Source: a virus
Length of the DNA: 64,000 nt
Strand: one strand, 5' to 3'
IMG/VR virus record: IMGVR_UViG_3300050034_000187
Coordinates: 131,762-195,761 of that record
The notes under the pieces were generated by a model, which worked only from the letters and a program-made list of their open reading frames with translations, was not told the DNA's origin and searched no databases. The position numbers and the translations under genes were made by a program. Positions 2 to 52,302 of the stretch are shown one piece after another (the first letter of the stretch is position 1; the number at the start of each line of letters is the position of its first letter).

Positions 2-1462
2 TATGCCAATACTCGCAATCTGGTTGCTGGTACATTGAAAAATAAAGATACTAGGATTATATCTGAACGAAACATTTTTTTGATGCCGTGGGATGTATAC
101 TCTCCTAATGAAGATGATACTTTGCCAGATAGCGCATATGAAAGAATGCTTCTTTTGGAATCGCTCGGTTTTCCAAAGTATCAGGGATTCATTGCACACA
201 ATATCAATGAGATTGAACCATTGATTGATAGGGTTCTGAAGTTCAATGAGACTGATTCCATCCAGAATGATGGCGTTGTAATTAAGACTGATTCTCATAA
301 GCTTCGTAATGTACTTGGTGTAAAAACGAAATTTACAAACTTTCAGTGCTGCTATAAAAATCAGCACATTAGTGCAGAAACCACCATTCTTGGCATTGAA
401 TGGGGGGTTGGTCGGCAAGGAAAAGTTACGCCGGTATTATTGATTGATCCTATTGATTTGGGTGGAGCAATCACTTCTCGGGCAACCGGAAACAACGTTA
501 CTTGGATGAATGCTCTTGGTATTCAAAATGGATCGGTGGTAAGCGTGTGCCGCAGTGGAGAAGTAATTCCGATGGTGACCGAAGTTATCGATAATTCGCA
601 TGCTACTCCCTTTGATATTCCAGAAGTATGCCCTGCCTGTGGAAATAAACTGGAAGTGAATTGCGATAATGGAATTACAATTCTATTCTGCCGCAATTCT
701 TTATGTGAAGGAAAAGCAGCAGAAACATTTTATTACATTGCAGATCGTGCTACTCTGGAAATTGATAATCTTGGAATTGAAATGGCAAAAGAATTGATCG
801 AACATCATATTACTAGTTTAAGTGATCTATTTGAGTTTGCGAATGTATCAATTAATGCTCCAGCAACTTATTTTAAGAACACCTTGCAGTTTCGTTCAGG
901 GGCGAATGTAGTAAAAATGGTCAAGTCTATTCAAGATGCAAAGACTAGAGATTGGGATAAGTGGTTTGCTGCATTTGGTATTCCAATGGTTGGTCATACT
1001 CTTGGAAAAGTGATTGCTACAAAGTTGAATCTGCAAAGTGAGGATATGCAAGATCTTTGTGAGAAGATTCTAACTATTCAAGATGGGCAGATTGATGGTC
1101 TTGGAGTAGTTAAATTGCAATCATTGCGTACTTGGGCGAATGATGAAAAGAATGTTGCACTTTGCATTGCTCTTTATCATGATGGCGTGCGCCCACAACC
1201 ATTAACTAACAAGGAGAAAACTATGGATGGAAAATTGAATGATATTACGTTTTGTATTACCGGAACATTCAAGGAAACCTTTGGTTCTAGAACCGTTATT
1301 ACTGGGCAGCTAGAGGCCCTTGGCGCGAAGTCTGTTTCTTCGGTGACCAAAGCTTGCAACCTATTGATCGCCGGAGACAAGGTGGGCTCAAAACTTTCAA
1401 AAGCTGAGAAGCTTGGAATCAAGATTGTGGGTGAAGAATGGCTGAGTTCGGCGCTGGACTAG
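2..1462 (+). CDS. ligA: NAD-dependent DNA ligase (5'-truncated by window)
   Basis: Frame open from nt 2 (YANTRNLVAGTLK, cf. FANPRNAAAGSLR); DGVVIK motif, VGRQGKVTPV OB-fold, Zn finger CPAC...CRNSLC, HhH region, C-terminal BRCT (FCITGTF...GSKLSKAEKLG). Confidence 0.95.
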   Translation, partial: YANTRNLVAGTLKNKDTRIISERNIFLMPWDVYSPNEDDTLPDSAYERMLLLESLGFPKYQGFIAHNINEIEPLIDRVLKFNETDSIQNDGVVIKTDSHKLRNVLGVKTKFTNFQCCYKNQHISAETTILGIEWGVGRQGKVTPVLLIDPIDLGGAITSRATGNNVTWMNALGIQNGSVVSVCRSGEVIPMVTEVIDNSHATPFDIPEVCPACGNKLEVNCDNGITILFCRNSLCEGKAAETFYYIADRATLEIDNLGIEMAKELIEHHITSLSDLFEFANVSINAPATYFKNTLQFRSGANVVKMVKSIQDAKTRDWDKWFAAFGIPMVGHTLGKVIATKLNLQSEDMQDLCEKILTIQDGQIDGLGVVKLQSLRTWANDEKNVALCIALYHDGVRPQPLTNKEKTMDGKLNDITFCITGTFKETFGSRTVITGQLEALGAKSVSSVTKACNLLIAGDKVGSKLSKAEKLGIKIVGEEWLSSALD

Positions 1463-1725
1463 GAATTGATGATGTTAATGGGGTTCCATTGAAAATTGGA
1501 ACCCCAATTAAATTTGAAATAGAAGACGTGGGCTGCTATTATGGGTACATTAAATCTTTGATTTATGAGGCTGAGGGCCATCATGTTTTTGATATGGATA
1601 GTAGCGCAGGTTCTAACGGAAGATTTTACAAGTCCATTAATATTTCGTGGCACGATTGGGTTCGTGCGTATCAGTTAACTGTTATTTCAGAGGAAGAATA
1701 TGTGCAGGGAATAATGGAGAGTTAA
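1438..1725 (+). CDS. C-terminal-tag family small protein (start uncertain)
   Basis: Ends ISEEEYVQGIMES; close paralog of next ORF. Confidence 0.75.
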   Translation: MAEFGAGLGIDDVNGVPLKIGTPIKFEIEDVGCYYGYIKSLIYEAEGHHVFDMDSSAGSNGRFYKSINISWHDWVRAYQLTVISEEEYVQGIMES

Positions 1726-1726
1726 T

Positions 1727-2002
1727 GTGAAAATTGAATTAGGTATTAGTGATGTTAGGGGGGTTCCATTAAAAATAGGAACCCCAATTAAATTTGGAAT
1801 GGAATCTGAATGTTATGGACACATTAAATCGCTGATTTATAAATATGATTCGGTATATCATGTTTTTGATATGGATAGTAGTGTATGCCCAGATGGAAAA
1901 TTTTACAAGAATGTTGCTAGTTCGTGGGCCGAGCACGTTAGTTTGTATCAGTTAACTGCAATTTCAGAGGAAGAATATGTACAGGGAATAATGGAGAGTT
2001 AA
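1727..2002 (+). CDS. C-terminal-tag family small protein
   Basis: Ends ISEEEYVQGIMES. Confidence 0.8.
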   Translation: MKIELGISDVRGVPLKIGTPIKFGMESECYGHIKSLIYKYDSVYHVFDMDSSVCPDGKFYKNVASSWAEHVSLYQLTAISEEEYVQGIMES

Positions 2003-2003
2003 T

Positions 2004-2267
2004 ATGTTTAAATTTACAGATATGCATGAAAATGAATTACATAATGGAGATTACATTGCATTTGGAAAATTTCCTAAATTATATAGAAAAATAGATCATT
2101 TTGAGCAATCCGCAGATTTCGCATATATGTATGATGATAATACTAATATTTTGTGGTCCATTTCTCTGCTGCGCGTGGCAGATGACTGGATGATGACGTG
2201 CGCTCGTGCAAGTAATCTAGAAAAGGTTTCGGAAGAGGAATATTTGCAATGGATAATGGAGCAATAA
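2004..2267 (+). CDS. C-terminal-tag family small protein
   Basis: DMHENELHNGDYI start; ends VSEEEYLQWIMEQ. Confidence 0.8.
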   Translation: MFKFTDMHENELHNGDYIAFGKFPKLYRKIDHFEQSADFAYMYDDNTNILWSISLLRVADDWMMTCARASNLEKVSEEEYLQWIMEQ

Positions 2268-2268
2268 A

Positions 2269-2567
2269 ATGAATGATGAATTGGGAATTAATGATGTTAA
2301 TGGTGTTCCATCATATATTAAATGGCAATTTTCAGATTGGAAAAAAGAAAAAATATAGAATATTGTTGGGGAATAATTACTTCGTTGATCGGTGAATGTG
2401 AATTTGCTGGCATAGAAAAATATCACTTCTTTTCAATAAGCAATTCAAATTTATCGATAATCAGGTTTTCTAAGCCAATTCTTCTTTCATGGGATCTCTG
2501 TATATCGACATGTAGGATGACTGTTATTTCGAAAGAAGAATTTTGGCAACTTGTAATGGAGAACTAG
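2269..2567 (+). pseudogene. Frameshifted C-terminal-tag family gene
   Basis: ATG 2269 gives MNDELGINDVNGVP (paralog of 1438/1727) then stops; the homologous remainder and tail ISKEEFWQLVMEN are in another frame (2322-2567). Confidence 0.6.
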
Positions 2568-17497: not shown

Positions 17498-17725
17498 ATG
17501 CATCTAGATAAACTTGGCAATGAACTTCAAGTCGGGGATTATATTAAAGAATATTATCCTTTTTGCGGTTCTAATAATACAGAAGGAATTATTACTAGGT
17601 TTGATCGAACCGGTTCCGGGAAAGATATTGCTAGATATAGCGAAACGAGCGGAGATTATGCATATTTAGATCATTCTGAGAAGCAGTCTGAAGAAGATAG
17701 AATTCAATATATAATGGAGAGATAA
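17498..17725 (+). CDS. C-terminal-tag family
   Basis: DKLGNELQVGDYI…QSEEDRIQYIMER; TTGACA promoter at 17451. Confidence 0.8.
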   Translation: MHLDKLGNELQVGDYIKEYYPFCGSNNTEGIITRFDRTGSGKDIARYSETSGDYAYLDHSEKQSEEDRIQYIMER

Positions 17726-18162
17726 TGGAATATAAATGTAGAAATGGATTTATGAATATTGGTGACTGGATGGGAACCTTGGGATCATCCTATTATGATG
17801 CGGGTGGGCAAGTCGTGGATTTTTGCTGGAAGTATGGTCCATTGTATGCCGATATTCAAGATCTACGAGGAACCGTATATTGGAGTAATATATATTTTTC
17901 TAACTTATGGAAATTTGAAAATAAAGTAGAATTCGATAATTGGAAAAATAATAGGATGCCGGAGTCATTTGACTTGAATGGAATGACTTTTAAAATTGGA
18001 GATTATTTTTCTCAGGGAGAAGTAGTGGGAAAGAAAATTGATATTATTTATCTGCTTCCAGATAAATCGTATGCAATAGGTCACGCAATTCCATTTAATA
18101 TAGATAATTCTGTTAGAAGGGCAACAGACGAAGAAATATTGCAATATACAATGGAGCAATAA
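17725..18162 (+). CDS. C-terminal-tag family (two domains)
   Basis: Two IGD-type units; ends ATDEEILQYTMEQ. Confidence 0.8.
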   Translation: MEYKCRNGFMNIGDWMGTLGSSYYDAGGQVVDFCWKYGPLYADIQDLRGTVYWSNIYFSNLWKFENKVEFDNWKNNRMPESFDLNGMTFKIGDYFSQGEVVGKKIDIIYLLPDKSYAIGHAIPFNIDNSVRRATDEEILQYTMEQ

Positions 18163-18163
18163 T

Positions 18164-18394
18164 ATGAATTATAAAGTTGGAGAGTATTATACTTTGATGA
18201 ATCCAGCTAGACAGCGGGATGATAGAATATGGGAAATTGTTAATATAAATGGCACTCGCGTTTATATTAAATTAGTAATGATTGGCGGCGGAATGGTAAG
18301 TTGGGGGACTTCTCAAAGAGTATCAATAAAATATATGAATAGGTATGAATTGATTTCAAAAGAAGAAGTTATGCAAGAAATCATGGAAAAATAA
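18164..18394 (+). CDS. C-terminal-tag family
   Basis: YKVGEYY…ISKEEVMQEIMEK. Confidence 0.8.
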   Translation: MNYKVGEYYTLMNPARQRDDRIWEIVNINGTRVYIKLVMIGGGMVSWGTSQRVSIKYMNRYELISKEEVMQEIMEK

Positions 18395-18395
18395 T

Positions 18396-18596
18396 ATGGG
18401 AAGAAATAATATTCAATTACATGTTGGCGACTATGTTATGGAAACCTTTTGTGGAAGAATAATTGATATTGGGAGGTTAAGCAGCATTGATACCAGAGAC
18501 GGTGGTATTGGATTTTGCGGTAAGCAGATTGTAATATTGGGGATGACAGAAAAAATAAGCGAAGAAGAATATCTACAATATGTTATGGAGAGATAA
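18396..18596 (+). CDS. C-terminal-tag family
   Basis: LHVGDYV…ISEEEYLQYVMER. Confidence 0.8.
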   Translation: MGRNNIQLHVGDYVMETFCGRIIDIGRLSSIDTRDGGIGFCGKQIVILGMTEKISEEEYLQYVMER

Positions 18597-18833
18597 ATGA
18601 GACATAGATGTCAAAATGGATTAATTGGCGTGGGAGATTATGTAGTAATTCGCAAAACGCATGGATTCGGCCATGGGAAAGTGACTGGATTTTCTCAAGC
18701 AAGCAGCCTATGGGGACATGCATGGAAAGCTACGATAGAAGGTTATGATAAACCAAACAATTGGGGATTCTGCTGTCTTGCAAAAAAATTTAATAGTGAC
18801 GAGGAAATTATACAATTTATTATGGAGCAATGA
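18597..18833 (+). CDS. C-terminal-tag family
   Basis: VGDYV…NSDEEIIQFIMEQ. Confidence 0.8.
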   Translation: MRHRCQNGLIGVGDYVVIRKTHGFGHGKVTGFSQASSLWGHAWKATIEGYDKPNNWGFCCLAKKFNSDEEIIQFIMEQ

Positions 18834-18834
18834 T

Positions 18835-19068
18835 ATGAAATTTAAAGTAGATGATTTAATTCGTGATGATAATGATATTAGCAGAATATGGAAAATTATC
18901 GGAGTATATCCAATGGATAAATCTTATAATACTATTCTATATATGCTGTCGGGACATATGATTGCATGGGGAGAAGATTATCCACAAAACGTATTGGCGT
19001 CCTTTCTCGAAGAAGATTTTAATGTATTGTCCAATGAAGAAATTATGCAATATATTATGGAGCAATAA
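18835..19068 (+). CDS. C-terminal-tag family
   Basis: MKFKVDDLI…LSNEEIMQYIMEQ. Confidence 0.8.
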   Translation: MKFKVDDLIRDDNDISRIWKIIGVYPMDKSYNTILYMLSGHMIAWGEDYPQNVLASFLEEDFNVLSNEEIMQYIMEQ

Positions 19069-19069
19069 T

Positions 19070-19336
19070 ATGAAATTTAAAGTTGGTGATTATATTAGAA
19101 ATGTAGATAGCACCATTGATGATAGAGTATGGAAAATAATAGCATTGGCTTTTGATGAAAATCAATATGTATTAGACTTAAAATTTTTTGTAAATATTGC
19201 AATTCCGTATTCTTACAGCATTATTGGTGATTGCTCCTTAAAGCCATTTGTTAGCTATGGTGAAGTTATACTGACAGACCGTACCATGGAAAAAGTATCA
19301 GATGAAGAAATATTGCAATTGGAAATGGAGCAATAA
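19070..19336 (+). CDS. C-terminal-tag family
   Basis: MKFKVGDYI…VSDEEILQLEMEQ. Confidence 0.8.
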   Translation: MKFKVGDYIRNVDSTIDDRVWKIIALAFDENQYVLDLKFFVNIAIPYSYSIIGDCSLKPFVSYGEVILTDRTMEKVSDEEILQLEMEQ

Positions 19337-25243: not shown

Positions 25244-25359
25244 ATACAAGATATATAGCTAATCGGGATAGGACATATCCTTAGAGCTTGGTAATTATGC
25301 TGGCGTTAGTCGGTACGTCCCAAGAAGCCCCCACCTCTTAGGCGGTGGGAGTATGTCAC

Positions 25360-25426
25360 AGGAAGTATTCGTGGATATAATATGCTATTAAGAGAAGAAG
25401 CACTGCAATATAAACTGGAGTTATAA
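25360..25426 (+). pseudogene. 3' remnant of a tag-family gene interrupted by the IS605 element
   Basis: GSIRGYNMLLREEALQYKLEL-stop directly after the IS; DDYIEVV 5' remnant near 23556. Confidence 0.6.
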
Positions 25427-25682: not shown

Positions 25683-25683
25683 T

Positions 25684-33785: not shown

Positions 33786-34016
33786 ATGAAAACACCATCT
33801 GATCTTGATCCGTGGGGAGAGAATGCAAAAGATATTAATGGATTTCATGTGAAAAACGGATGTTTGGCGAGAGAACTTTCTACCGGCTTCTGCGGAAAAA
33901 TGAAATATGATTTCGAAGACAGCTATTGGGAATTAGATGGAGAAATTGTTGATCCCAAAGAGGTAGAAGTTATAACTGATCCCTATGAAATTCTAGCATT
34001 GGAGATGGAACAATGA
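33786..34016 (+). CDS. C-terminal-tag family (TDPxE subtype)
   Basis: KDING…ITDPYEILALEMEQ; leaderless promoter. Confidence 0.75.
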   Translation: MKTPSDLDPWGENAKDINGFHVKNGCLARELSTGFCGKMKYDFEDSYWELDGEIVDPKEVEVITDPYEILALEMEQ

Positions 34017-34270
34017 TAACTTATTGGCGTGATTTGCATCTGAAGAAAGGGATGTATATTGCCGCAGCCTTGCTTTTGGATGGCACGGTCCAAAGAATAT
34101 ACAAAGTTAAAAAAGTGGATAAAAGTGAAATATTATTGGAAAATATCCCTACCGGACTCAGCAAAGGAGAGAATATAATTACCGCAAAAACTTATTGGAT
34201 TATTCACAAAAATTATTTCGTCAAGATTTTATCTGACGAAGACGTTCTTCAACTTCAAATGGAGCTATAA
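34013..34270 (+). CDS. C-terminal-tag family
   Basis: LKKGMYI…LSDEDVLQLQMEL. Confidence 0.78.
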   Translation: MITYWRDLHLKKGMYIAAALLLDGTVQRIYKVKKVDKSEILLENIPTGLSKGENIITAKTYWIIHKNYFVKILSDEDVLQLQMEL

Positions 34271-34271
34271 T

Positions 34272-34529
34272 ATGGAAGATTTTATGCGGCTTTCTGATAA
34301 AAATGGAAATGACGTTCAAGAAGGAGACTATGTTCGCATCCAAACAAATTCCATATCAGGAACTTTAATTGTCACCACACAAAAAGTAGTTAGATCCTTC
34401 TGGGTGGATACAAAAACAATGGAACCAATTTGTTATATTAGAGATAAGAATTGGGAGCGAATAGATTCCAGCCGAATAGAACTTATAACTGATCCTTATG
34501 AAATTTTGGCATTACAGATGGAGGAATAA
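34272..34529 (+). CDS. C-terminal-tag family (TDPxE subtype)
   Basis: DKNGNDVQEGDYV (YopX-like)…ITDPYEILALQMEE. Confidence 0.78.
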   Translation: MEDFMRLSDKNGNDVQEGDYVRIQTNSISGTLIVTTQKVVRSFWVDTKTMEPICYIRDKNWERIDSSRIELITDPYEILALQMEE

Positions 34530-34532
34530 TAT

Positions 34533-34916
34533 ATGCATGGCGATATAACTTTTAAAATTGGAGATCTTGCTGCTTCTTTTATCATTGATCCAGAAAATGA
34601 GGAAAAATGGCTTATCGTGGGAAAATTAATTAACGATGAAAAAGGGTGGAAAGTATATGATGTTCCAACAGGTTATGGAGATACCTCGATATTAAAGCAG
34701 AGAAAGGGGAGTTTTCGTACTATGATTCTTGATAAAAATGGAGTAGAATTTACTGAAGGATGCTGGTTAAAAGTGGACGGCAAGGAACCACAATTTGTGA
34801 AAGGAAAGAATATAGTCATGGATCTTTCGGAACTTGGAAATAATGAATATATAATCAACGGCATGGAAATCATTACCGATCCATCTGAAATTCTGGCGTT
34901 AGAAATGGAACAATAA
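34533..34916 (+). CDS. C-terminal-tag family (two domains, TDPxE subtype)
   Basis: FKIGDL…DKNGVEFTEG…ITDPSEILALEMEQ. Confidence 0.75.
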   Translation: MHGDITFKIGDLAASFIIDPENEEKWLIVGKLINDEKGWKVYDVPTGYGDTSILKQRKGSFRTMILDKNGVEFTEGCWLKVDGKEPQFVKGKNIVMDLSELGNNEYIINGMEIITDPSEILALEMEQ

Positions 34917-36089: not shown

Positions 36090-36217
36090 CTTTATCAGTT
36101 TTGCAAAAGTGTGATATACTTTTAATATATTTACGTACTTAATTCACTGGCCGCGAAGTTTCCTCATGACATTAATGCGGGATTTAAAAGAATAAGGAGA
36201 ATCAAGGATATGACTCA

Positions 36218-36520
36218 ATGAATACAAACCGCATCATTCGCCACTGTAAACGCCAGTCTTGCGGTCATGTTTGGGCGCGGCAGTATGAAACCGCTCCCAA
36301 CGCTCGCGCACCTTTCCGCATTGATGAATCAGGCAAGAGAGTATTTGCCAGCGATAGCTACGAGTGGACTTGCCCGAAGTGTAATTCGCAATGTGTCACA
36401 GGCAATACCGTCCAAGGCTTTATCTCTAAGCATAAATGCGGAGCAAAGTGTACCGGAGCCATCGGTCCTAACTGTGAGTGTTCATGCGGAGGAGCTAACC
36501 ATGGGAAGAATTGGCTGTAA
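36218..36520 (+). CDS. Cys-rich zinc-binding protein
   Basis: C….C, CPKC, KCGAKCTGA.G..CECSCGG.NHG. Confidence 0.7.
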   Translation: MNTNRIIRHCKRQSCGHVWARQYETAPNARAPFRIDESGKRVFASDSYEWTCPKCNSQCVTGNTVQGFISKHKCGAKCTGAIGPNCECSCGGANHGKNWL

Positions 36521-36570
36521 ACCGTCAGCCACCCCCGAAAAAGAGTTGCAATATATTATGGAGACCTACC

Positions 36571-36822
36571 ATGATTGATGAATACAAAATCGGAGATTGG
36601 GTCTACATCGAAACTCCAATTTGGTCTAATATTGGAAAAATTTATAAATGCCATCTTACTACTGCTTGGGATAGGAAGTATTACGATTACGTAGCAGTTA
36701 TTATCAATGGGGACTGGCTTTGGAATATTCCTTATGACAGAACCGCATGGGCGCATTTCTATACAAAGAATGTTCGTAAATTATCCAACGAAGAAATTCT
36801 GCAATATCAAATGGAGTGCTAG
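36571..36822 (+). CDS. C-terminal-tag family
   Basis: MIDEYKIGDWV…LSNEEILQYQMEC. Confidence 0.82.
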   Translation: MIDEYKIGDWVYIETPIWSNIGKIYKCHLTTAWDRKYYDYVAVIINGDWLWNIPYDRTAWAHFYTKNVRKLSNEEILQYQMEC

Positions 36823-36903
36823 GAGGGTACTAGGCCAGTCTACAAACGGCAGGAAGGTGCCCCAGATGAGCGGGAATAGGCATTGTATAAGAGGAGCAAG
36901 ACA

Positions 36904-37149
36904 ATGAAATATGAACCAAAGGTTGGTGATATATTCAAGGTATCGTTTAAAGGAATTGATTATGTCTGCCATATTATTGAAATTGGTATATGGCAACAAA
37001 CAACAATTGTCAAGTATCGATGGATTAATCAAAATGGCGCAAGTGGTATTTCAACCGACACCCTTCATTCTATTTCGAATTTGGAAAATGAATCCAGTTT
37101 TTATCTTTATAATGAAGAAGAGAAGATGCAATTTATCATGGAGCAATAA
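36904..37149 (+). CDS. C-terminal-tag family (YNEEEK subtype)
   Basis: PKVGDIF…YNEEEKMQFIMEQ. Confidence 0.82.
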   Translation: MKYEPKVGDIFKVSFKGIDYVCHIIEIGIWQQTTIVKYRWINQNGASGISTDTLHSISNLENESSFYLYNEEEKMQFIMEQ

Positions 37150-37150
37150 A

Positions 37151-37411
37151 ATGATTGATGAATACAAAATCGGCGACTATGTGAAAATTACAAGTATAGA
37201 GACGGGATGGCTGCTGGGGAAGGTTGAAAGTATTGATGCAAAAATTAACGATTATCCTTTGTGCAGTTTCATTAATTTTAAAATTATTGAAAATAATCGA
37301 TATGATAATTGGTATGTTCCCTGTGATAAAACCAAATGGCCAGAATCAGCAAGCATTGAAGTAAATAGATTATCTAACGAAGAAGCACTACAATTTATTA
37401 TGGAGCAATGA
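37151..37411 (+). CDS. C-terminal-tag family
   Basis: MIDEYKIGDYV…LSNEEALQFIMEQ. Confidence 0.82.
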   Translation: MIDEYKIGDYVKITSIETGWLLGKVESIDAKINDYPLCSFINFKIIENNRYDNWYVPCDKTKWPESASIEVNRLSNEEALQFIMEQ

Positions 37412-37412
37412 T

Positions 37413-37637
37413 ATGAAAATAGAAGTGGGGAAATATTATAGCATTTTCATTAATGAAGAATGGGTTTTAAAAGTTGTAAAAATTGAGAACAATGATATTT
37501 TTTATATTTGCATTAACCATCCAGAAAAACAATACATAGATAGAACTAGATATGAATTTGCTCGTTGGTTATCGCCGGAATATAAAGCAAAAATTCTAAC
37601 CGAAGAAGAAGTTCTACAATGGAAAATGGAGCAGTAA
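37413..37637 (+). CDS. C-terminal-tag family
   Basis: IEVGKYY…LTEEEVLQWKMEQ. Confidence 0.82.
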   Translation: MKIEVGKYYSIFINEEWVLKVVKIENNDIFYICINHPEKQYIDRTRYEFARWLSPEYKAKILTEEEVLQWKMEQ

Positions 37638-37638
37638 T

Positions 37639-37893
37639 ATGAAATTTAAAATTGGCGATATCTTGAAAATTGAAAGTACCGGAGTAATGGTCATGGTAGG
37701 AGAAGTGGTAGGGATGAGTAAATTTTCGTGCGGAGCACCAGATAATGTTCTCTGTTACAAAATCAAAGTGTTCTTTCCATATGGCGCTGCATGGAATGTT
37801 CCAGTTAGCAAATCATTTTATAAACAATTCATAACCAAAACAGTACATAAATTATCAAACGAAGAATATCTGCAATATGTGATGGAGCTATAA
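37639..37893 (+). CDS. C-terminal-tag family
   Basis: MKFKIGDIL…LSNEEYLQYVMEL. Confidence 0.82.
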   Translation: MKFKIGDILKIESTGVMVMVGEVVGMSKFSCGAPDNVLCYKIKVFFPYGAAWNVPVSKSFYKQFITKTVHKLSNEEYLQYVMEL

Positions 37894-37895
37894 AA

Positions 37896-38138
37896 ATGAA
37901 TGAATATGTTCCAAAAATCGGTGATGTATTTGACCTAACTTTGGTAGATGACTATATTATTGAAATTAAGAGGATACCGCCAAATAGTATTGGATACAAG
38001 TGGATCAATTTAACTCGATCTGTTGAAAAAATTGAAAGTCATCTACCGCCCGTGGGAGTCTGGCGCACATGGATATCTAATCCAAGCTTTCATCTTTATA
38101 ATGAAGAAGAGAAATTACAATATTTAATGGAGCAATAA
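37896..38138 (+). CDS. C-terminal-tag family (YNEEEK subtype)
   Basis: PKIGDVF…YNEEEKLQYLMEQ. Confidence 0.82.
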   Translation: MNEYVPKIGDVFDLTLVDDYIIEIKRIPPNSIGYKWINLTRSVEKIESHLPPVGVWRTWISNPSFHLYNEEEKLQYLMEQ

Positions 38139-38139
38139 T

Positions 38140-38409
38140 ATGGATGATGAATATAAAATTGGAGATTATGCAGTAATTCACACGCTGACGAAGACCTGTT
38201 TAATTGGAGTAGTAATTGAATTACATTATTGTGAGAATCTCGTTCATGGTCATGATGACGATGATGTTATTTATTTTAGAATAATTAATAATCTATGTAA
38301 GTATATCTGGATGGTGCCATATGATAAATCAAAATTAAATGATTATGGCATCAGTTTTATCAGAAAGCCATCTAATGAAGAAGTTTTACAATACATTATG
38401 GAACAATGA
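38140..38409 (+). CDS. C-terminal-tag family
   Basis: MDDEYKIGDYA…PSNEEVLQYIMEQ. Confidence 0.82.
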   Translation: MDDEYKIGDYAVIHTLTKTCLIGVVIELHYCENLVHGHDDDDVIYFRIINNLCKYIWMVPYDKSKLNDYGISFIRKPSNEEVLQYIMEQ

Positions 38410-38418
38410 GGAGAACAT

Positions 38419-38661
38419 ATGAAACATACATTTCAAAGTGGAGATATTTTTGAATTTTCAACAAAGGATTATCACTTTATTGTTAAAGTTGAATCAATTG
38501 ATATCTCTTCGGAAGAACTAGAAATAACTTATCGAAATACAACTACCGGGTTAACTGGGAATGAGCAAGGAGGTTTTAAAACCCTTGCACTCTGGGAAGA
38601 ATCATTGGATTTTCATCTTTATAATGACGAAGAAAAAATGCAATATATTATGGAGCAATAA
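38419..38661 (+). CDS. C-terminal-tag family (YNEEEK subtype)
   Basis: FQSGDIF…YNDEEKMQYIMEQ. Confidence 0.82.
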   Translation: MKHTFQSGDIFEFSTKDYHFIVKVESIDISSEELEITYRNTTTGLTGNEQGGFKTLALWEESLDFHLYNDEEKMQYIMEQ

Positions 38662-38663
38662 AC

Positions 38664-38918
38664 ATGGATGATGAATATCAAATTGGGGATTATGCAGAAA
38701 TTCACACGATGGGGCAGAATTGTTTAATCGGAATAGTAACCGAATTACATGACGAGGCATTTTCTGGAGAGGATGTTATTACTTTCACCATAATTGATAA
38801 TACTCCTTATAAGGAATGGCTGGTTCCTTATAACAAATCAAAATTAAATTATTATGCTACGAGTTTTATCAGAAAGCTATCTAATGAAGAAGTTTTACAA
38901 TACATTATGGAACAATGA
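38664..38918 (+). CDS. C-terminal-tag family
   Basis: MDDEYQIGDYA…LSNEEVLQYIMEQ. Confidence 0.82.
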   Translation: MDDEYQIGDYAEIHTMGQNCLIGIVTELHDEAFSGEDVITFTIIDNTPYKEWLVPYNKSKLNYYATSFIRKLSNEEVLQYIMEQ

Positions 38919-38927
38919 GGAGAACAT

Positions 38928-39176
38928 ATGAAATTTAAAATTGGAGAATATTTAAAAATTGTTTTGGAAGTTGATGCTAATACTCAACCGTTATTAGGAA
39001 AAATTACAGACACCAATAGTTCTATCAATTCTGGAATACCTGTAGCTGTTTGCCAGATCATAAGTGGGAGAACTTATTTTATTCCTCACAATCGCAAAAA
39101 ATGGTATCCTTATAACATTCTGTCGATTGAGAGATTGTCTGATGAAGAAGCAATGCAATGGAAAATGGAGTTATAA
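38928..39176 (+). CDS. C-terminal-tag family
   Basis: MKFKIGEYL…LSDEEAMQWKMEL. Confidence 0.82.
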   Translation: MKFKIGEYLKIVLEVDANTQPLLGKITDTNSSINSGIPVAVCQIISGRTYFIPHNRKKWYPYNILSIERLSDEEAMQWKMEL

Positions 39177-39634
39177 TGTTTTTACCAAATCAATATGTTA
39201 AAATTATTCCAGATAAAATATCTTGCTGTTTCTGGAAATATGCATTATTTACTGGATATTCCAGACAAAATGGAAAACCCCAACTACAACTACCAGATGG
39301 ACGAAGTTTTGAAGCAGATGATACTTGCATGGGCCATCTTACTCCAGAAGAGGCATCTCAATGGATGTTCGAGTTTCAATGCATTGATTACATCTATGAC
39401 AATGTTGGAGAAAAGATTCATACTAATGATTATATAAAATATGTTAATAGATCAAGTGGGAAACAAAGCTTTGGGATAGTTACTTCCTTTGATTTTCCAA
39501 CATTATTTATTAAAGATTTAATTCATAAAGAAAATACATATTCGGAATTCGAAAAGTATGTTTATATATATTCACAAGAATATGTTGGTAAATCATGCGA
39601 AGAAGATTATGTACAATGGATGATGGAGCAATGA
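39176..39634 (+). CDS. C-terminal-tag family (fusion of two units)
   Basis: Internal degenerate tag LTPEEASQWMFEF plus terminal SCEEDYVQWMMEQ. Confidence 0.8.
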   Translation: MFLPNQYVKIIPDKISCCFWKYALFTGYSRQNGKPQLQLPDGRSFEADDTCMGHLTPEEASQWMFEFQCIDYIYDNVGEKIHTNDYIKYVNRSSGKQSFGIVTSFDFPTLFIKDLIHKENTYSEFEKYVYIYSQEYVGKSCEEDYVQWMMEQ

Positions 39635-42015: not shown

Positions 42016-43367
42016 TGGAATTTGATACAAAGGTGCAGCAATTATTTTTGGAATTTATGGTGTCAACTCCGGCATTATATACGCGAGTACAAAATATTTT
42101 TAATCCAGATAACTTTGATAAAAGTTTAAAAGTGGCAGCAGAATTCATCCAAGCTCACGCAGAACAATATTCTGGTTTACCTAAATTTGAACAGTTGAAT
42201 GCTGTTACTTCTGGGAATTTTATTGAGGTAAGCGGGATTAATGATAGCCAAGAAGAATGGTTCTTTGAGAACTTTGAAAAATTTACAAGACAACAAGAAC
42301 TATCTTCTGCAATTAGAAAAAGCATCGACCTATTAGAAAAGGGAGAGTTTGATCCAGTTGAAAAGCTTATTAAAGATGCCGTTCAAATCGGTCTTACTAG
42401 AGATTTAGGTATTAGCTATCATGAAGATCCGCGTGCTCGACTACTTAAATTGCGAGATTCAAACGGCCAACAAAGTACTGGATGGAAAACTTTTGATACT
42501 TTTTTATTTGGCGGAATGTCCAGAGGAGAACTTCATATTTTTTCTGCTCCATCGGGTGGCGGCAAAAGCTTAGCTCTTCAAAATCTTGCATTGAATTGGG
42601 CAGAGATGGGATTGAATGGTATCTATATTAGTTTGGAGCTATCTCAAGAATTAGTTGCTTTTCGCATTGATTCAATGTTAACTGGATATTCCAGTAAAGA
42701 GATTTTCAAGAATCTAGATGACGTTGAATTAAAAGTGAAGTTTGCTGGAAAGAAGCAAGGCAAACTTAAAATTAAGTATATGCCGTCTAGTAGTAATACC
42801 AATGCTATCAGGGCATATATTAAAGAATTAAAAATTAAGGAGCAATTCCGTCCAGATTTTATTATGGTAGATTATCTTGGATTAGTTATGCCGTCTGGTT
42901 GTAAAGTTGATCCATCTAACATGTTCATGCGAGATAAGTACACTTCGGAAGAACTTAGAAATATTGCTATGGAAGAAGATGCAATTCTTTGTACTGCTGC
43001 TCAGATTAATCGAGATGGAATTGATGCAAGTGAATTTTCTCAATCTCAAATTTCAGGAGGATTATCACAAATTTTCTCATGTGATAGCCTAATGGGAATT
43101 TATCAAACAAAGGCAATGAGAGAAGCCGGAGAGATGCAATTTCAATTCCTCAAAACTCGCAATAGTTCTGGAGTAGGAAGTAAATTGGATATGGCATATA
43201 ATATAGATTCCATGCGAATTTCTGACCTAGAAGGTGGTAGTAGAATGGGCAATGGAATGACTGGTTCTAATGTATTAGCTCAAATTAAGAATACAAATCA
43301 AGCATCTAAAAGTGCTCCGGATATGAAAGCACAATTATCTGCTTTGATGAATAAGGTGAAATCATGA
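42015..43367 (+). CDS. replicative DnaB-like helicase (gp41-like)
   Basis: Walker A APSGGGKS, YISLEL, IMVDYL, TAAQINR, KTRNS. Confidence 0.92.
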   Translation: MEFDTKVQQLFLEFMVSTPALYTRVQNIFNPDNFDKSLKVAAEFIQAHAEQYSGLPKFEQLNAVTSGNFIEVSGINDSQEEWFFENFEKFTRQQELSSAIRKSIDLLEKGEFDPVEKLIKDAVQIGLTRDLGISYHEDPRARLLKLRDSNGQQSTGWKTFDTFLFGGMSRGELHIFSAPSGGGKSLALQNLALNWAEMGLNGIYISLELSQELVAFRIDSMLTGYSSKEIFKNLDDVELKVKFAGKKQGKLKIKYMPSSSNTNAIRAYIKELKIKEQFRPDFIMVDYLGLVMPSGCKVDPSNMFMRDKYTSEELRNIAMEEDAILCTAAQINRDGIDASEFSQSQISGGLSQIFSCDSLMGIYQTKAMREAGEMQFQFLKTRNSSGVGSKLDMAYNIDSMRISDLEGGSRMGNGMTGSNVLAQIKNTNQASKSAPDMKAQLSALMNKVKS

Positions 43368-43603
43368 TCTTAAAAGAAGGTGATTATATTTGGATAGAAT
43401 GGAATGAAGATATAAATTATGATATTTTGGGCAAGAGAACTTTATTTCGCTGTTCTCTTGCCATCGATAGTTTAATGTATTGTGAAAGTGGAAGTATTGC
43501 GGCAATGAATGTCAGCATAGATACCGAAGAAAAATCATACATGTATTCCGCAATATATCCAGCAACAGACGAGGAAGTTATTCAATGGAAAATGGAGCAA
43601 TAA
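43364..43603 (+). CDS. C-terminal-tag family
   Basis: LKEGDYI…ATDEEVIQWKMEQ. Confidence 0.8.
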   Translation: MILKEGDYIWIEWNEDINYDILGKRTLFRCSLAIDSLMYCESGSIAAMNVSIDTEEKSYMYSAIYPATDEEVIQWKMEQ

Positions 43604-43860
43604 ATAATGATTCAATAGAATTCAAGGTAGGCGATAAAGTTATCATCTATTTTTCAAAATTAGCAAGAAGTCAAACCTTGCCGTTTTTATGGGAATGTAT
43701 AGAATTAAAAAATATTGTTACCATGCTATGCACCTCCGGGAATTTACATAATAAACTTATGATTCCAAGGTTTTATAAAGATCTTGAATATTATCCAATG
43801 TACACAGATATTCATATAGCATCTGATGAAGAGATCCTACAAATACAAATGGAACTTTAA
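43585..43860 (+). CDS. C-terminal-tag family (start uncertain)
   Basis: FKVGDKV…ASDEEILQIQMEL. Confidence 0.7.
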   Translation: MENGAINNDSIEFKVGDKVIIYFSKLARSQTLPFLWECIELKNIVTMLCTSGNLHNKLMIPRFYKDLEYYPMYTDIHIASDEEILQIQMEL

Positions 43861-45936: not shown

Positions 45937-46146
45937 ATGAAATACATTCGAGCAAATTCTAATAATAAAGTGTTTAATTGTAAAAATTGTATTGGTGTGG
46001 ATGGAAAAGCGGATATGAATATAGGATACACGGTGATTGTATCCAAAAATATTTTTGGATTGCAGAACTGCTCCTGTGTTACTGCAAATGAAAACATTAT
46101 TGAAGTACCAGAAGAAGAAGTAATTCAATGGAAAATGGAGAAGTGA
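45937..46146 (+). CDS. C-terminal-tag family (Cys-rich body)
   Basis: CKNCI…CSC…VPEEEVIQWKMEK. Confidence 0.75.
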   Translation: MKYIRANSNNKVFNCKNCIGVDGKADMNIGYTVIVSKNIFGLQNCSCVTANENIIEVPEEEVIQWKMEK

Positions 46147-46148
46147 AT

Positions 46149-47138
46149 ATGATCCAGTTATATAAAACATTATATGGTTCAAAGTTATATGGAACCTCGA
46201 TTGAAACATCGGATACAGATTATAAAGTAATTATGCTGCCCAATTTAAATGAATTGCTTTTGGGGAATCGTCTTGCATCCACCGTTGCCAAAACTAATAT
46301 TTCTGCTCATACCAAAAATGAAGCGGAAGATGTAGACATTGAATATATTCCATTACAGATTTTTGCCAAGCATTATTTAAGTGGCCAAGCTTATGCATTA
46401 GAAGTATGCAATGCTGCCTTCTGCACTGGGACAATATATGATAATAGGTTTCTTGAATTTTGTAAGAAACTGCAAGATAATTTTTTAACATCTGATTTAA
46501 CTTCGATGATTTCATATAGTGTAGATCAGGCTAATTTATATTCAGATAAAGGGCACCGCCTAAATGTGATATTAGAAGTTGAGAAGGTATTCTTAAAGTT
46601 TCCTCCGAATGATAAATTAAAAGATCATTCTCTAAAATTAAAAGAATTGATGCTGCCTATTTTGAAAAAGTATCCAGAGTATTTCTCATTTGATTTATAT
46701 GAAGCATCTATGGGGAAATATATGCCGTGTTTAAAAGTCAATACAAAAACGTTTCCTTATACCAATTCATTTCATATTGGTTTGCAAACCATTTCCTCCA
46801 TGAAAAAGAAATATGGTGCCCGAGTTAAGTCAGCAGCAAATGCTGATGGCAGCGATTTCAAAGCAATGGGACATGCTCTTCGTATCATTTTGGAAGGGCA
46901 AGATCTTCTTACGAATAGGAAAATTATATTTCCATATTCGGAAAAGCGAGTTAATTTAATTAAAAACGTTCGCATGGGGAAATATTCAAGAGAAGAAATA
47001 TCAAAAATAATCGAAGCACAACTTACAAATTTGAAATCATTGGAAGAAGCTTCTACCTTGCAAAAGCCATCGGAAGAGTTATCCAATAAATTAAATGAAT
47101 TTGTTATCAAAGAATTGCGAGGATTTTATGAAATCTGA
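46149..47138 (+). CDS. Pol-beta-superfamily nucleotidyltransferase
   Basis: GSKLYGT…SDTDYK, YG.R, DFKAMGHALR. Confidence 0.8.
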   Translation: MIQLYKTLYGSKLYGTSIETSDTDYKVIMLPNLNELLLGNRLASTVAKTNISAHTKNEAEDVDIEYIPLQIFAKHYLSGQAYALEVCNAAFCTGTIYDNRFLEFCKKLQDNFLTSDLTSMISYSVDQANLYSDKGHRLNVILEVEKVFLKFPPNDKLKDHSLKLKELMLPILKKYPEYFSFDLYEASMGKYMPCLKVNTKTFPYTNSFHIGLQTISSMKKKYGARVKSAANADGSDFKAMGHALRIILEGQDLLTNRKIIFPYSEKRVNLIKNVRMGKYSREEISKIIEAQLTNLKSLEEASTLQKPSEELSNKLNEFVIKELRGFYEI

Positions 47139-47352
47139 ACATCTTAAAAAGGGAGATTGTGGAAAAATAATCTCTACTGATACTTTCGATGATTTTATTG
47201 ATCTGCGTTCGGGAGAGTTGGCGGTTATTGAAGACCTAAATAATTACACATTTTTTGTTTGTTGTCATAATCATCGCAAGCAGTGGATTCCGAAAGATTC
47301 TATTGTTCCTGCAAGTGAAGAAGAAGTTCTGCAATATATTATGGAGCAATAA
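47128..47352 (+). CDS. C-terminal-tag family
   Basis: LKKGDCG…ASEEEVLQYIMEQ. Confidence 0.8.
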   Translation: MKSEHLKKGDCGKIISTDTFDDFIDLRSGELAVIEDLNNYTFFVCCHNHRKQWIPKDSIVPASEEEVLQYIMEQ

Positions 47353-47549
47353 TGTTTTCTGAGTGGAGAGATGGCTGCGTTATGATTAATAGGAAAACCA
47401 ACGAAGTTATTCATGTGAAAAATGTATATAGTGCCAATACTTATAGAAAAAATGATGGAATTATATATCATACGAATATCATTTCTGGAAGTGATTTTAA
47501 AATATTTTCGTGTGAGGAGGATTATTTACAATGGATGATGGAGCAATAA
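47352..47549 (+). CDS. C-terminal-tag family
   Basis: SCEEDYLQWMMEQ. Confidence 0.78.
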   Translation: MFSEWRDGCVMINRKTNEVIHVKNVYSANTYRKNDGIIYHTNIISGSDFKIFSCEEDYLQWMMEQ

Positions 47550-47770
47550 ATGAAAAATATTATATTTTTACAGTTTCGGAAGACGATGACTGTTATTGTT
47601 ATAATTGCATTGCTTCTAGGTCGAAATATCCGAGACACGCCTTATATGATTTTAAAAGTATTAATAAGATGGGAAGGTTAATACCGGAGCCGTGCCATTG
47701 CCATCAGCCTCTTGCCAAATGGGAAAAACTATCCGACGAAGAATATCTACAATATATAATGGAGAACTAA
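47531..47770 (+). CDS. C-terminal-tag family (Cys-rich body; start uncertain)
   Basis: CYNCIASR…CHC…LSDEEYLQYIMEN. Confidence 0.7.
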   Translation: MDDGAINEKYYIFTVSEDDDCYCYNCIASRSKYPRHALYDFKSINKMGRLIPEPCHCHQPLAKWEKLSDEEYLQYIMEN

Positions 47771-47773
47771 TAT

Positions 47774-47998
47774 ATGAATATAAATTATTATAAAAATATG
47801 TATGGCTGTCCCGCCAATCCATCCTGTAAAAATTGCATTGCATCAAGAGATGAAAATAGCATGTTACAATTGGATTTAATTACAAGTATCAATAGATTCT
47901 GCGGCAATAATCCATGCGGATGCATAATATATGATGAGTCGGATGATTGGGAAAAGTTATCAAATGAAGAATCTATGCAATATGTTATGGAGCAATAA
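47774..47998 (+). CDS. C-terminal-tag family (Cys-rich body)
   Basis: CKNCIASR…CGC…LSNEESMQYVMEQ. Confidence 0.78.
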   Translation: MNINYYKNMYGCPANPSCKNCIASRDENSMLQLDLITSINRFCGNNPCGCIIYDESDDWEKLSNEESMQYVMEQ

Positions 47999-48001
47999 TT
48001 A

Positions 48002-48202
48002 ATGAAAGTGAAATATTATCATTTATTTTCATCTACTGAGCGCATACATAACCAATATGGAATAATCAAAGATAATATATTTGTTAGTGAGAAAGTAATT
48101 ATTCCATATTGGGTAATAAATACATGGATAGAACAATGCCTCGATGTTAAATTTGAAGAAATATCCGAGGAAGAATACTTGCAGTGGAGAATGGAATTAT
48201 GA
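48002..48202 (+). CDS. C-terminal-tag family
   Basis: ISEEEYLQWRMEL. Confidence 0.78.
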   Translation: MKVKYYHLFSSTERIHNQYGIIKDNIFVSEKVIIPYWVINTWIEQCLDVKFEEISEEEYLQWRMEL

Positions 48203-48450
48203 GATTTAATAGTATTGAAGAAGCACATTTGCCGTCTGGAGAAATTATCAAAGTCGGAGATTATGTGATCGAATCAAGAGGAGATAATAGTTTTGGAAAA
48301 GTCGAGTCTCTGGATGAAATTGATGGAACAATCTTAATTATGTACGAAACTCCGCATGGAACCGAAAATGTAGATAACGATTGCGCATATTCAAATTTAA
48401 GTGAGAAGATAAGCGAAGAAGAGTTTTTGCAATATTGCATGGAGGAATAA
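48199..48450 (+). CDS. C-terminal-tag family
   Basis: IKVGDYV…ISEEEFLQYCMEE. Confidence 0.8.
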   Translation: MRFNSIEEAHLPSGEIIKVGDYVIESRGDNSFGKVESLDEIDGTILIMYETPHGTENVDNDCAYSNLSEKISEEEFLQYCMEE

Positions 48451-50362: not shown

Positions 50363-50611
50363 ATGATACTGGGCGATGGAAATGACGGAACCTATGGAGA
50401 TATGGTACGGATTAATGATCCGTACCAATTCCCGGAATATACTTATCATAAGAATATGATTGGAATTATAACCGCCATTTATTATCCAAGTGTATATGTA
50501 AAATGGTTGTCATGTGATAATAGCAATTCCCGCATTACTAATTCAGTCACACCAAAATCATTGGAATTGTTAAGTGAGGAAGAAGCTTTACAATATAGGA
50601 TGGAATTGTGA
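50363..50611 (+). CDS. C-terminal-tag family
   Basis: YGDMV…LSEEEALQYRMEL. Confidence 0.8.
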   Translation: MILGDGNDGTYGDMVRINDPYQFPEYTYHKNMIGIITAIYYPSVYVKWLSCDNSNSRITNSVTPKSLELLSEEEALQYRMEL

Positions 50612-50797
50612 ATGGTGAAAATTGGTGATTATGTTAGATTTAACGTTGACAACACTTATATTATATGTAAAGTTGAATTTATTAACGTTTTTGGAGAAGC
50701 AAGTTTGTCTACTAACGGGGCCATTTATTACTACCAAGGCTATGAAATGGAAAAATTGACGGAAGAAGAAATACTTGAATACAAAATGGAATTATAG
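50612..50797 (+). CDS. C-terminal-tag family
   Basis: VKIGDYV…LTEEEILEYKMEL. Confidence 0.8.
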   Translation: MVKIGDYVRFNVDNTYIICKVEFINVFGEASLSTNGAIYYYQGYEMEKLTEEEILEYKMEL

Positions 50798-50806
50798 GAG
50801 AGTTTT

Positions 50807-51025
50807 ATGCAAACAAATGATTATGTACGAGCATATCTATTTGGAACACATCCAAAGCAAATGATTATTGGGAAACTGATTACGCCAGATTCGGAAGGTG
50901 GGTGGACCATTAGCTATAGAAACATGAATAATAATCCAGAGAAAGAACGATACATTTATCGTCCAGAAGCAGACATTGAATTACTATCAGATGAGGAAAT
51001 TGTTCAATATAAAATGGAGGAATAA
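50807..51025 (+). CDS. C-terminal-tag family
   Basis: MQTNDYV…LSDEEIVQYKMEE. Confidence 0.8.
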   Translation: MQTNDYVRAYLFGTHPKQMIIGKLITPDSEGGWTISYRNMNNNPEKERYIYRPEADIELLSDEEIVQYKMEE

Positions 51026-51153
51026 TGGAAGACTTTGAAGAAGATTATTACGATACCGAGGATGATGAAAATTCTCTTATTCAAAAAGAATCAAAAGAAA
51101 ATTTAAAGGAAACTCGCAGAGATGAATATTATGACGAGTTTGATCAATATTAA
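51025..51153 (+). CDS. 42-aa highly acidic peptide
   Basis: Hand translation MEDFEEDYYDTEDDENSLIQKESKENLKETRRDEYYDEFDQY; GGAGG SD from the upstream tag. Confidence 0.5.
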   Translation: MEDFEEDYYDTEDDENSLIQKESKENLKETRRDEYYDEFDQY

Positions 51154-51155
51154 TT

Positions 51156-51386
51156 ATGACTCGGATATTATCTGCGTCGTCTGATCTTCTCGGAAAGCAT
51201 TGTTATGTGAATGCCCGGTATCTCGACGGTCCAAAAGTTGGGAAAATTATTGAATGCTGTGGCGACCACGTATATTTTAGATGTGTTTGTGGGAGTGAAT
51301 CTAATATCAGTTTTCGAGTAGTATCATTTGAAGAAATATATCTTTTATCAGATGAAGAATATTTACAATATTGCATGGAGGACTAG
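51156..51386 (+). CDS. C-terminal-tag family
   Basis: LSDEEYLQYCMED. Confidence 0.78.
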   Translation: MTRILSASSDLLGKHCYVNARYLDGPKVGKIIECCGDHVYFRCVCGSESNISFRVVSFEEIYLLSDEEYLQYCMED

Positions 51387-51387
51387 T

Positions 51388-51639
51388 TTGGAATTAATAG
51401 CATCTACCACAAATACCAAGAAAGGTGAGTATGTTTGGGTAAAATCCATTGTATATGATGATAAGTTTTATGTTGGCGTGATAACTGAATGTTATTCAGA
51501 ATGGTTGGAAATTCATCTTGAAAATTATATCAATGATAATAGCGCAATTTATGGAAATGATATAACCAGAAAAATATATGATAGCACTGTCTATAAAATG
51601 AGTGATGAGGAGTACTTACAATGGCAGATGGAACAATGA
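51388..51639 (+). CDS. C-terminal-tag family (TTG start inferred)
   Basis: KKGEYV…MSDEEYLQWQMEQ. Confidence 0.75.
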   Translation: MELIASTTNTKKGEYVWVKSIVYDDKFYVGVITECYSEWLEIHLENYINDNSAIYGNDITRKIYDSTVYKMSDEEYLQWQMEQ

Positions 51640-51866
51640 AAATTTGGGAATGTAAAATTGGCGGAATTGATTTACCTAACCTTCCATCTGGTGCTGATGG
51701 TCCTATGAGAAATGCTATTGAGAAAGCGTATTATGATTTAACTGGGAAGTATCCGGATTTTAATTTTTCTGGATGGGGGGCAAATCTTACAAAAGAAGAA
51801 CGAAAATGCGTTTTCTCATCAGAAGATTCTAGATATTACGATGAAAGGACTGGAAAATATGATTGA
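51636..51866 (+). CDS. hypothetical protein
   Basis: WECKIGG…LPSGADGPMR.A.E.AY…FSGWG. Confidence 0.6.
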   Translation: MKIWECKIGGIDLPNLPSGADGPMRNAIEKAYYDLTGKYPDFNFSGWGANLTKEERKCVFSSEDSRYYDERTGKYD

Positions 51867-52302
51867 TAGCTACGGGAATGAATTGAATAAAGGCGATATT
51901 ATTCTTCTAACGGAGATCACTGATCCCGATGGCATCAAAGATGCACCATATATTGTTAGCGATGTATGGCAAGATGATTTAATTGTGTTTTTGTCTTTAA
52001 CAGATAATACAGATAGGTATGTGTTTCAGAGGCACATTGCTCCTTCAATTAGCGATGGACTTCAATATTCTATTATTAAATTGCATCAAATAAATTTACA
52101 AGTGGTATCAAATTTTTCATCCGGAGATTTTGTTAAATTTTTTGATAATACACAGGAATTCATAGGAAATATTATATGCAGCACCATCAATCAAAAATAT
52201 TTTGTAATTGAGAATATTTATAACTATCAATTTGTTAGACGGCGAGAAGATATTTCAATATTATCAGAAGAAGAACAGTTTCAATATCAAATGGAACAAT
52301 AG
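51859..52302 (+). CDS. C-terminal-tag family (two domains)
   Basis: DSYGNELNKGDII…FSSGDFV…LSEEEQFQYQMEQ. Confidence 0.8.
   Translation: MIDSYGNELNKGDIILLTEITDPDGIKDAPYIVSDVWQDDLIVFLSLTDNTDRYVFQRHIAPSISDGLQYSIIKLHQINLQVVSNFSSGDFVKFFDNTQEFIGNIICSTINQKYFVIENIYNYQFVRRREDISILSEEEQFQYQMEQ

Follow-up and report, generated by a model that had tools for sequence, protein, structure and literature searches.

Introduction

Why do dozens of small, dissimilar phage proteins end in the same dozen residues? The question is raised by a 64,000-nucleotide stretch of DNA (the window), which forms the last third of the 195,761-bp virus record IMGVR_UViG_3300050034_000187 (positions 131,762 to 195,761; the genome of this phage is referred to as G000). 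A preliminary description, made from the letters of the window, reported 48 open reading frames (ORFs), one of them frameshifted, and two remnants, all sharing one C-terminal tag, lying in nine patches on the + strand and interpreted as variable binder domains addressed to a common partner. On balance the tail appears to be a docking helix of this kind, and it is terminal, selected as a peptide, carried across folds, differentiated into dialects and coupled to the translation of the next gene.

A shared C-terminal tail

The nine patches hold 48 intact tail-bearing ORFs (4, 8, 6, 4, 11, 2, 1, 6 and 6 in order; Table 1) and were borne out at their coordinates, together with the strand and both remnants (25310-25426 and approximately 36525-36575). 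The tail follows the consensus h-S-x-E-E-h-h-Q-h-x-M-E-x-stop (h, hydrophobic), with a mean identity of 56% over 65 tails, and the residue after M-E, the last before the stop, varies freely in G000. A scan of the whole genome and of relatives with a tail profile had been proposed, and it widened the system in both directions. A position-specific scoring matrix, trained on 54 strict matches and used at a threshold of 8, gave 64 terminal matches in the genome: 18 lie outside the window, and the 46 inside it are 45 intact ORFs and a remnant. A looser pattern added four ORFs, comprising one weak case outside the window and three variants within it (ends 34016, 34529 and 34916), whose tail reads Y/S-E-I-L-A-L-x-M-E-x. 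Beyond the window there are hence 19 further tail-bearing ORFs, all on the + strand, bringing the genome total to about 67; by crude ORF calls the tail ends 63 of 248 small ORFs, roughly a quarter. No matches arose in five shuffled genomes (top score -6), and a DNA pattern requiring two tags matched 23 times in the genome and never in 100 dinucleotide shuffles.

No internal copy of the tail in G000 scored above 14 with the matrix. Of the fused members, 17725-18162 joins two domains and has the tail at its end only, and 39176-39634 has an internal tail that has decayed. The ORF at 2322-2567 is a frameshifted paralog of that at 1438, a partial tail closes 45779-45934 just upstream of patch 7, and the remnant at 25310-25426 still provides GGAG to the ORF at 25428. 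Elsewhere in the genome (G000 C1 41579-42307), three tail-bearing ORFs lie within a radical-SAM cluster, the neighbours of which bear a distinct, serine-rich N-terminal tag.

Selection on the peptide and translational coupling

The tail is kept for two reasons, namely selection on the peptide and provision of a ribosome-binding site for the next gene. Its M-E codons (ATG-GAG) yield GGAG, the Shine-Dalgarno (SD) sequence of the following gene, situated 3-12 nucleotides upstream of its start and often absent where there is none to serve. The codon of Glu(-2) is for this reason not free, being GAG in 48 of 64 tails, compared with 49 among the 258 Glu codons of the bodies, and, when only ATG starts are counted, in 39 of 41 coupled tails as against 10 of 26 uncoupled ones. 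GAA replaces it in 16 of the 26 tails without a coupled ATG and in 2 of the 41 coupled tails (p = 5e-7), while the residue stays Glu, so that the peptide is under selection too, as the preliminary description had supposed. Its remark that synonymous codons vary within the tag holds for Ser(-12), where all six codons occur (39 TCN and 10 AGY among 65 tails), and for E-10 and E-9, where codon choice equals body usage (p = 0.27 and 0.45), but not for Glu(-2), which the SD overlap constrains. In the proposed comparison of tag with body, seven paralog pairs agree at 67/84 in the tail and 234/484 in the body (p = 6e-8), demonstrating conservation of the tail at the protein level. In the related phages G001 and G002, GGAG is formed in 15 of 46 and 4 of 13 tails, and the corresponding L-E is retained nonetheless.

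Sigma-70-like promoter sequences, seen by eye beside several arrays, suggest early expression; in RNA runs X6 and X9 the phage was present as short pieces only, and expression was not demonstrated. No tRNA or Rfam matches were found in the window.

Variable bodies and their probable fold

The bodies in front of the tail were initially described as mostly unrelated, which is correct at the level of BLAST (65 bodies, 49 clusters) and misses an early G/N-D/E-hydrophobic motif common to 46 of the 65. None of the 48 window ORFs reached the Pfam cut-off, PHROG returned for 40 members single-member matches only (top E 4e-4), and word-based protein searches with tagged proteins gave mainly self matches. 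Structure prediction of the bodies had also been proposed, and the one member folded (38664-38918) gave an AlphaFold model in which the tail forms a helix (74-83) after a five-strand barrel (predicted local distance difference test score 86). Compared by VIA-align with Tudor, KOW and PWWP domains, the model reached a top Z of 6.5 (root-mean-square deviation 3.6, 75 aligned) and none of 8 or above, and the ESM Atlas holds similar folds at template-modelling scores of 0.60-0.74. The member is consequently SH3/Tudor/KOW-like with no specific family nameable.

Most G000 bodies probably adopt one very diverged SH3/Tudor-like barrel fold, with the Cys-rich and larger ones as exceptions, and the majority may form one remote superfamily. 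Whether the tag is simply the last helix of a single-domain family has accordingly two answers: homology does not extend over the full length (49 clusters, and helical and membrane-like bodies in relatives), and a remote common fold is probable for most G000 bodies. A profile of the 40 members gave 83 matches, which besides their own proteins were mostly long SH3-like-repeat proteins and a few single tagged ones. In the long proteins, two of them from Bacillus-group genomes, SH3-like repeats are followed by A/S-T/S-x-E-E. The helix cap accordingly belongs to a wider module, and it is the terminal half of the tail that is special.

The tail in related phages

The phage is a 196-kb member of the Rak2/PA5oct clade. 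In its capsid protein it shares 58-66% identity with the cultured jumbo phages Vibrio 2.275.O, CBB, PA5oct, Phosso and Atu_ph07, and 74-79% with the uncultured G001, G004 and G005; with these three it groups in one clade (support 100/100). Ten sequencing runs contain part of the phage, all labelled peat metagenome. Counts in relatives rest on crude ORF calls and the pattern h-x3-(L/M)-E-x(1-2)-stop, for which shifted controls gave 0.1-3.8. By this measure the tail ends 70 of 622 small ORFs in G001, 26/133 in G002, 21/116 in G003, 4/56 in G004, 3/83 in G005 and 21/34 in contig L016; Vibrio 2.275.O, CBB, PA5oct and Atu_ph07 stay at the level of the controls. With relaxed patterns, two of nine matches in a metagenome scan were real (L016 and L023), none of 17 in prokaryote genomes were, and all six in IMG/VR carry the tail (three near-identical), as do further contigs. 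Q-containing DNA patterns gave five and four matches in IMG/VR, all by chance, and a gp32 locus search found nothing.

Several body types carry the same ending in these relatives, confirming that the tail is portable across folds: SH3-like proteins, a helical H-P-N-x-P type, a Y-P-x-A family, 240-residue proteins and, by eye, membrane-like proteins with a hydrophobic N-terminal stretch. Among 47 tagged proteins of relatives, Pfam matched none and PHROG two, both in function-unknown families. The tail also falls into genome-specific dialects, as would be predicted if each had a reader to match. Position -6 holds Q in most tails of G000 (56 of 64), whereas G002 has L there throughout (13 of 13) and G003 in the majority (13 of 18). 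In the cultured Sinorhizobium phage Phosso (389 of 469 kb read), h-x-L-(T/R/K/A)-(W/F/Y) closes 25 of 456 small ORFs (1.9 on average in controls), and endings of the form L-F-M-L-E-W-x in G001-G003 bridge the L/M-E and Phosso dialects, suggesting that the two are akin. Atu_ph07, the sister of Phosso in the capsid tree, lacks the tail, which makes the trait patchy. A literature search found no publications on Phosso. In the uncultured phages L243, L273, L279 and L222, arrays of small ORFs end in the Phosso-like F-x-L-(R/K)-W-x. A separate shared C-terminal tail, R-R-G-I-G, occurs on eight adjoining basic ORFs of Vibrio phage 2.275.O (W01 98992-102226).

Strain variation

That the bodies vary fast is seen from a comparison of window positions 46900-52450 with runs X2 and X3. 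In 2.9 kb of tagged genes there are 16 substitutions (12 replacement, 4 silent) and four in-frame indels, while 2.1 kb of neighbouring genes show one silent change (p = 0.002 for the contrast); three further variable sites fall outside the genes counted. None of the differences affects an invariant tail position, and the second strain differs mainly in the bodies.

What the tail may do

In an ideal helix the five invariant positions of the tail lie within a 120-degree arc opposite the variable hydrophobics, an arrangement that fits a docking helix bringing variable binder domains to one shared partner. Tagged genes would be made early, as coupled operons; the hydrophobic, variable side of the helix (-8, -7, -5, -4) would pack onto each body and leave the invariant side (E-10, E-9, Q-6, M-3, E-2) facing outwards, where one reader could recognise it. 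Differing host targets would be bound by the bodies, in G000 mostly SH3/Tudor-like barrels. Arrays would expand by tandem duplication, and the built-in ribosome-binding site would render a new unit translatable wherever it landed. The original idea of variable binders addressed by one terminal helix is upheld by the portable tail, the fast-varying bodies and the selection on the peptide; it missed the SD overlap and the probable common fold. As to the kind of reader, the leading guess, which takes up a lesser share of the likelihood given to docking, is an AAA+ unfoldase, for instance the phage-encoded ClpX, with the tagged proteins as substrate adaptors. A bolder version, rather unlikely to hold as a whole, is a plug-in library in which 10-25% of the small proteins of the clade's large phages would be variable binders, fastened by a genome-specific C-terminal helix to one hub, e.g. 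the phage's ClpX(P), and steering it towards dozens of host defence or regulatory proteins. If true, the library would be the phage equivalent of viral E3-ligase adaptors, and each docking helix would contain the ribosome-binding site for the unit after it.

The phage-encoded ClpX, ClpP and ClpS and a conserved helical protein ending in L-W-T are weak candidates for the partner. The ClpX-like ATPase is 48% identical to a G002 protein with a ClpX zinc finger. Among seven near-whole genomes the L-W-T protein tracks the tail, occurring in G000, G001 and Phosso and being absent from four untagged isolates. It has several hundred relatives in IMG/VR (at least 556 confirmed); tblastn against 50,697 cultured-phage records gave no direct match, but Phosso has a distant copy. 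The surroundings of 80 carriers of this protein, up to 10 kb away, contained the F-x-L-x-W dialect 31 times in 13 loci (control mean 6) and the L/M-E dialect five times against 10 in the control; F-x-L-x-W was near control level in seven of nine long carrier contigs, in which other dialects were not searched. A complex prediction with the modelled member scored 0.08 with a mark of 0.32, was classed as 'no answer' and is used neither way. The amidoligase at 43857-45392, considered as a Pup-like ligase, was dropped, having no match in G001-G005.

Several observations weigh against the docking interpretation. No reader for the tail was identified among the candidates examined: ClpX occurs in G000-G003 and Phosso, yet also in the untagged PA5oct and Atu_ph07, ClpP was not found in G001, and the Clp genes do not track the tail. 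Beyond the seven genomes the L-W-T protein does not track the tail either, being also found in phages without a shared tail on the neighbouring small ORFs (L234, L239 and L263 are such carriers). The structure prediction covers one body, and the exposure of the invariant face is derived from ideal helix geometry rather than model coordinates. Given that S/T-x-E-E follows SH3-like repeats inside long proteins, the first half of the tail may be structural. For Q(-6), 60 of 64 tails use CAA, a higher share than in the bodies (p = 0.005), and tails show slightly fewer silent differences than bodies do (11/59 vs 65/218, p = 0.10), so that a contribution at the RNA or DNA level remains. The tail is looser elsewhere, with the stop one or two residues after L-E in G001 and T, R or A in place of E in Phosso, and the 12:4 ratio of replacement to silent changes, from contigs of depth ~5, fits relaxed as well as diversifying selection.

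Other explanations must be weighed with these points in mind. The tail might be the structural last helix of expanded paralog families, its end fixed by the SD overlap and read by nothing. The common SH3-like start motif, the recurrence of S/T-x-E-E after similar barrels in unrelated long proteins, the strength of the GGAG overlap in G000 and the way tail subtypes track body subtypes all agree with this, but the same ending stands on helical-repeat, membrane-like and other bodies, L-E is retained in G001 and G002 whether or not GGAG is formed, internal copies in fusions decay, and an invariant polar face would be unexpected for packing alone; such a helix is considered rather improbable. A turnover signal, i.e. 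a degron or stabiliser by which a protease, Clp-type or other, would determine how long early proteins last, would account for the strictly terminal position, would suit membrane and soluble carriers equally and has ClpS, ClpP and a ClpX-like ATPase at hand in the phage. Acidic C-termini, however, usually block ClpX-type C-degron recognition, and the freely varying last residue and the untracked Clp genes also speak against it, leaving turnover unlikely.

Still less probable is a capsid-packaging signal, the C-terminal counterpart of the T4 internal-protein targeting sequence, by which the proteins would be injected with the DNA. In both cases small accessory proteins that vary carry a tag that does not, T4-like head genes are present, and IPI and IPIII of T4 counter host defence (accessible text of PMC9391042), but relatives have membrane-like carriers, the tail is at the opposite terminus, and several late-region proteins start with a different leader, M-(K/R)-I-x-E-hydrophobic. 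The preliminary description had included packaging among its options. Starts of the form M-(K/R)-(I/L)-x-E-hydrophobic occur at G000 C1 14159-17993, 51339-52619, 99682-100389 and 107842-109277 and likely represent an N-terminal head-targeting leader separate from the tail. Lastly, the junction of tail, SD sequence and start might serve mainly as a DNA homology site for cassette shuffling, with the peptide as by-product. Direct repeats of ~35 bp at every junction, remnants beside insertions and the microhomology-driven amplification known in T4 (accessible text of PMC9391042) point that way; third codon positions and the Ser codon box nevertheless vary as protein selection predicts, and contigs of seven runs contain no credible tail-to-tail joint (the listed joints have sides of 21-37 nucleotides, and their placeable loose ends are other tagged genes of this genome), making shuffling the most improbable of these accounts.

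Small early ORFs are the bulk of the unexplained gene content of large phages, and through the shared tail between a tenth and a quarter of them fall into a single system. The question of their partner is reduced to one 12-residue peptide, of which the cultured Phosso carries a related dialect on ~25-30 proteins. The fast-changing bodies are candidate counter-defence or host-takeover factors, and if docking holds, the tail would be an address label, of a kind not yet described, on an arsenal of fast-changing proteins.

Insertions and neighbouring elements

The foreign insert listed in Table 1 has no Pfam match for its ORF. DNA similar to it is deeper than the phage in four peat runs, and in run X1 DNA of ~90-95% similarity reaches a depth of 350-400 where the phage has ~99, so the insert may derive from some organism of greater abundance, perhaps the host. 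A repeat of 140-160 bp resembling a miniature inverted-repeat transposable element (MITE) is present in five copies of 89-96% identity, one of them between two tagged genes. Within 7 kb lie an IS200/IS605 element (23712-25243), a resolvase with TnpB (27123-29040) and a second TnpB (29464-30666). An anti-CBASS (cyclic-oligonucleotide-based antiphage signalling system) Acb1 match above cut-off was found at 32358-32912 (E 1e-15).

Table 1. Positions of the tagged patches, candidate readers and associated elements (window numbering unless marked G000 C1)
Feature	Position	Strand	Remarks
Patch 1, four tagged ORFs	1438..2567	+	ORFs 1438-1725, 1727-2002, 2004-2267, 2322-2567
Patch 2, eight tagged ORFs	17498..19578	+	
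Tail remnant	25310..25426	+	directly after IS200/IS605 element (23712-25243)
Patch 3, six tagged ORFs	25428..27035	+	
Patch 4, four tagged ORFs	33786..34916	+	three with variant tail ending L-A-L-x-M-E-x
Foreign insert, 51% guanine plus cytosine	36203..36530	+	100-residue Cys-rich ORF 36218-36520; precedes tail remnant
Patch 5, eleven tagged ORFs	36571..39634	+	paralog subtypes alternate
Modelled member (patch 5)	38664..38918	+	predicted SH3/Tudor-like barrel and tail helix
Patch 6, two tagged ORFs	43364..43860	+	
Patch 7, one Cys-rich tagged ORF	45937..46146	+	
Patch 8, six tagged ORFs, two Cys-rich	47128..48450	+	four in-frame indels in strain X2
Patch 9, six tagged ORFs	50363..52302	+	51859-52302 is a two-domain fusion
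Conserved 273-residue protein ending L-W-T	54427..55248	+	weak candidate reader, no known family
Clp set	G000 C1 80463-81656; 81757-82206; 82264-82578; 87223-87825		ClpX-like ATPase; small heat-shock-like (by eye); ClpS; ClpP
MITE-like repeat copies	40040-40220; G000 C1 26514-26656, 37990-38129, 71243-71405, 115853-115994		

Comparison with known systems

The view that no system of this form has been described stands: a literature search, with supplements and most subscription papers outside it, found none, and no Pfam or PHROG family covers the tail. The supplements of PMC7824862 and bioRxiv 10.64898/2026.10.24.761521 may list such families. In their bodies, the tagged proteins resemble DUF7205, CarD/TRCF RID-like and Bacillus-group multi-repeat proteins by the predicted barrel, the G-D-Y-V start and the S/T-x-E-E helix cap; they differ in having no significant Pfam match, and the multi-repeat proteins are without the terminal h-x-x-x-(L/M)-E-x stop.

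The capsid-targeting sequence of T4 is N-terminal, cleaved and present on a handful of proteins. The tag of G000, by contrast, sits on ~67 proteins, in relatives also on membrane-like ones, and is C-terminal in 48 of 48 window ORFs, the N-termini of which vary. As with IPI-IPIII of T4, small and variable accessory proteins of a T4-like phage all bear one short tag that stays constant (accessible text of PMC9391042). Bacillus phage G, with a lineage-specific expansion of ~35 zinc-ribbon copies (accessible text of PMC7824862), is alike in having dozens of small paralogs in one large phage. What phage G shares is a whole domain, whereas in G000 it is a tail that crosses body types.

Also comparable are C-terminal docking tails, such as those of SspB-type ClpX adaptors and the clamp-binding tails of T4. 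To these can be added SPO1 Gp53, a ClpC adaptor (accessible text of PMC6873191), and in all of them a terminal peptide or adaptor tethers a functional body to one hub. Such systems involve 1-4 proteins per genome as against ~67 in G000, and the likeness is one of architecture. A variable binder with a constant terminal docking helix is likewise found in poxvirus ANK/PRANC adaptors and in the cargo peptides of microcompartments and encapsulins. The partners there are a eukaryotic ligase or a shell, neither of which was identified in G000. The tail system is a member of no family tested; it is real, wider than first reported and most likely a docking tag.

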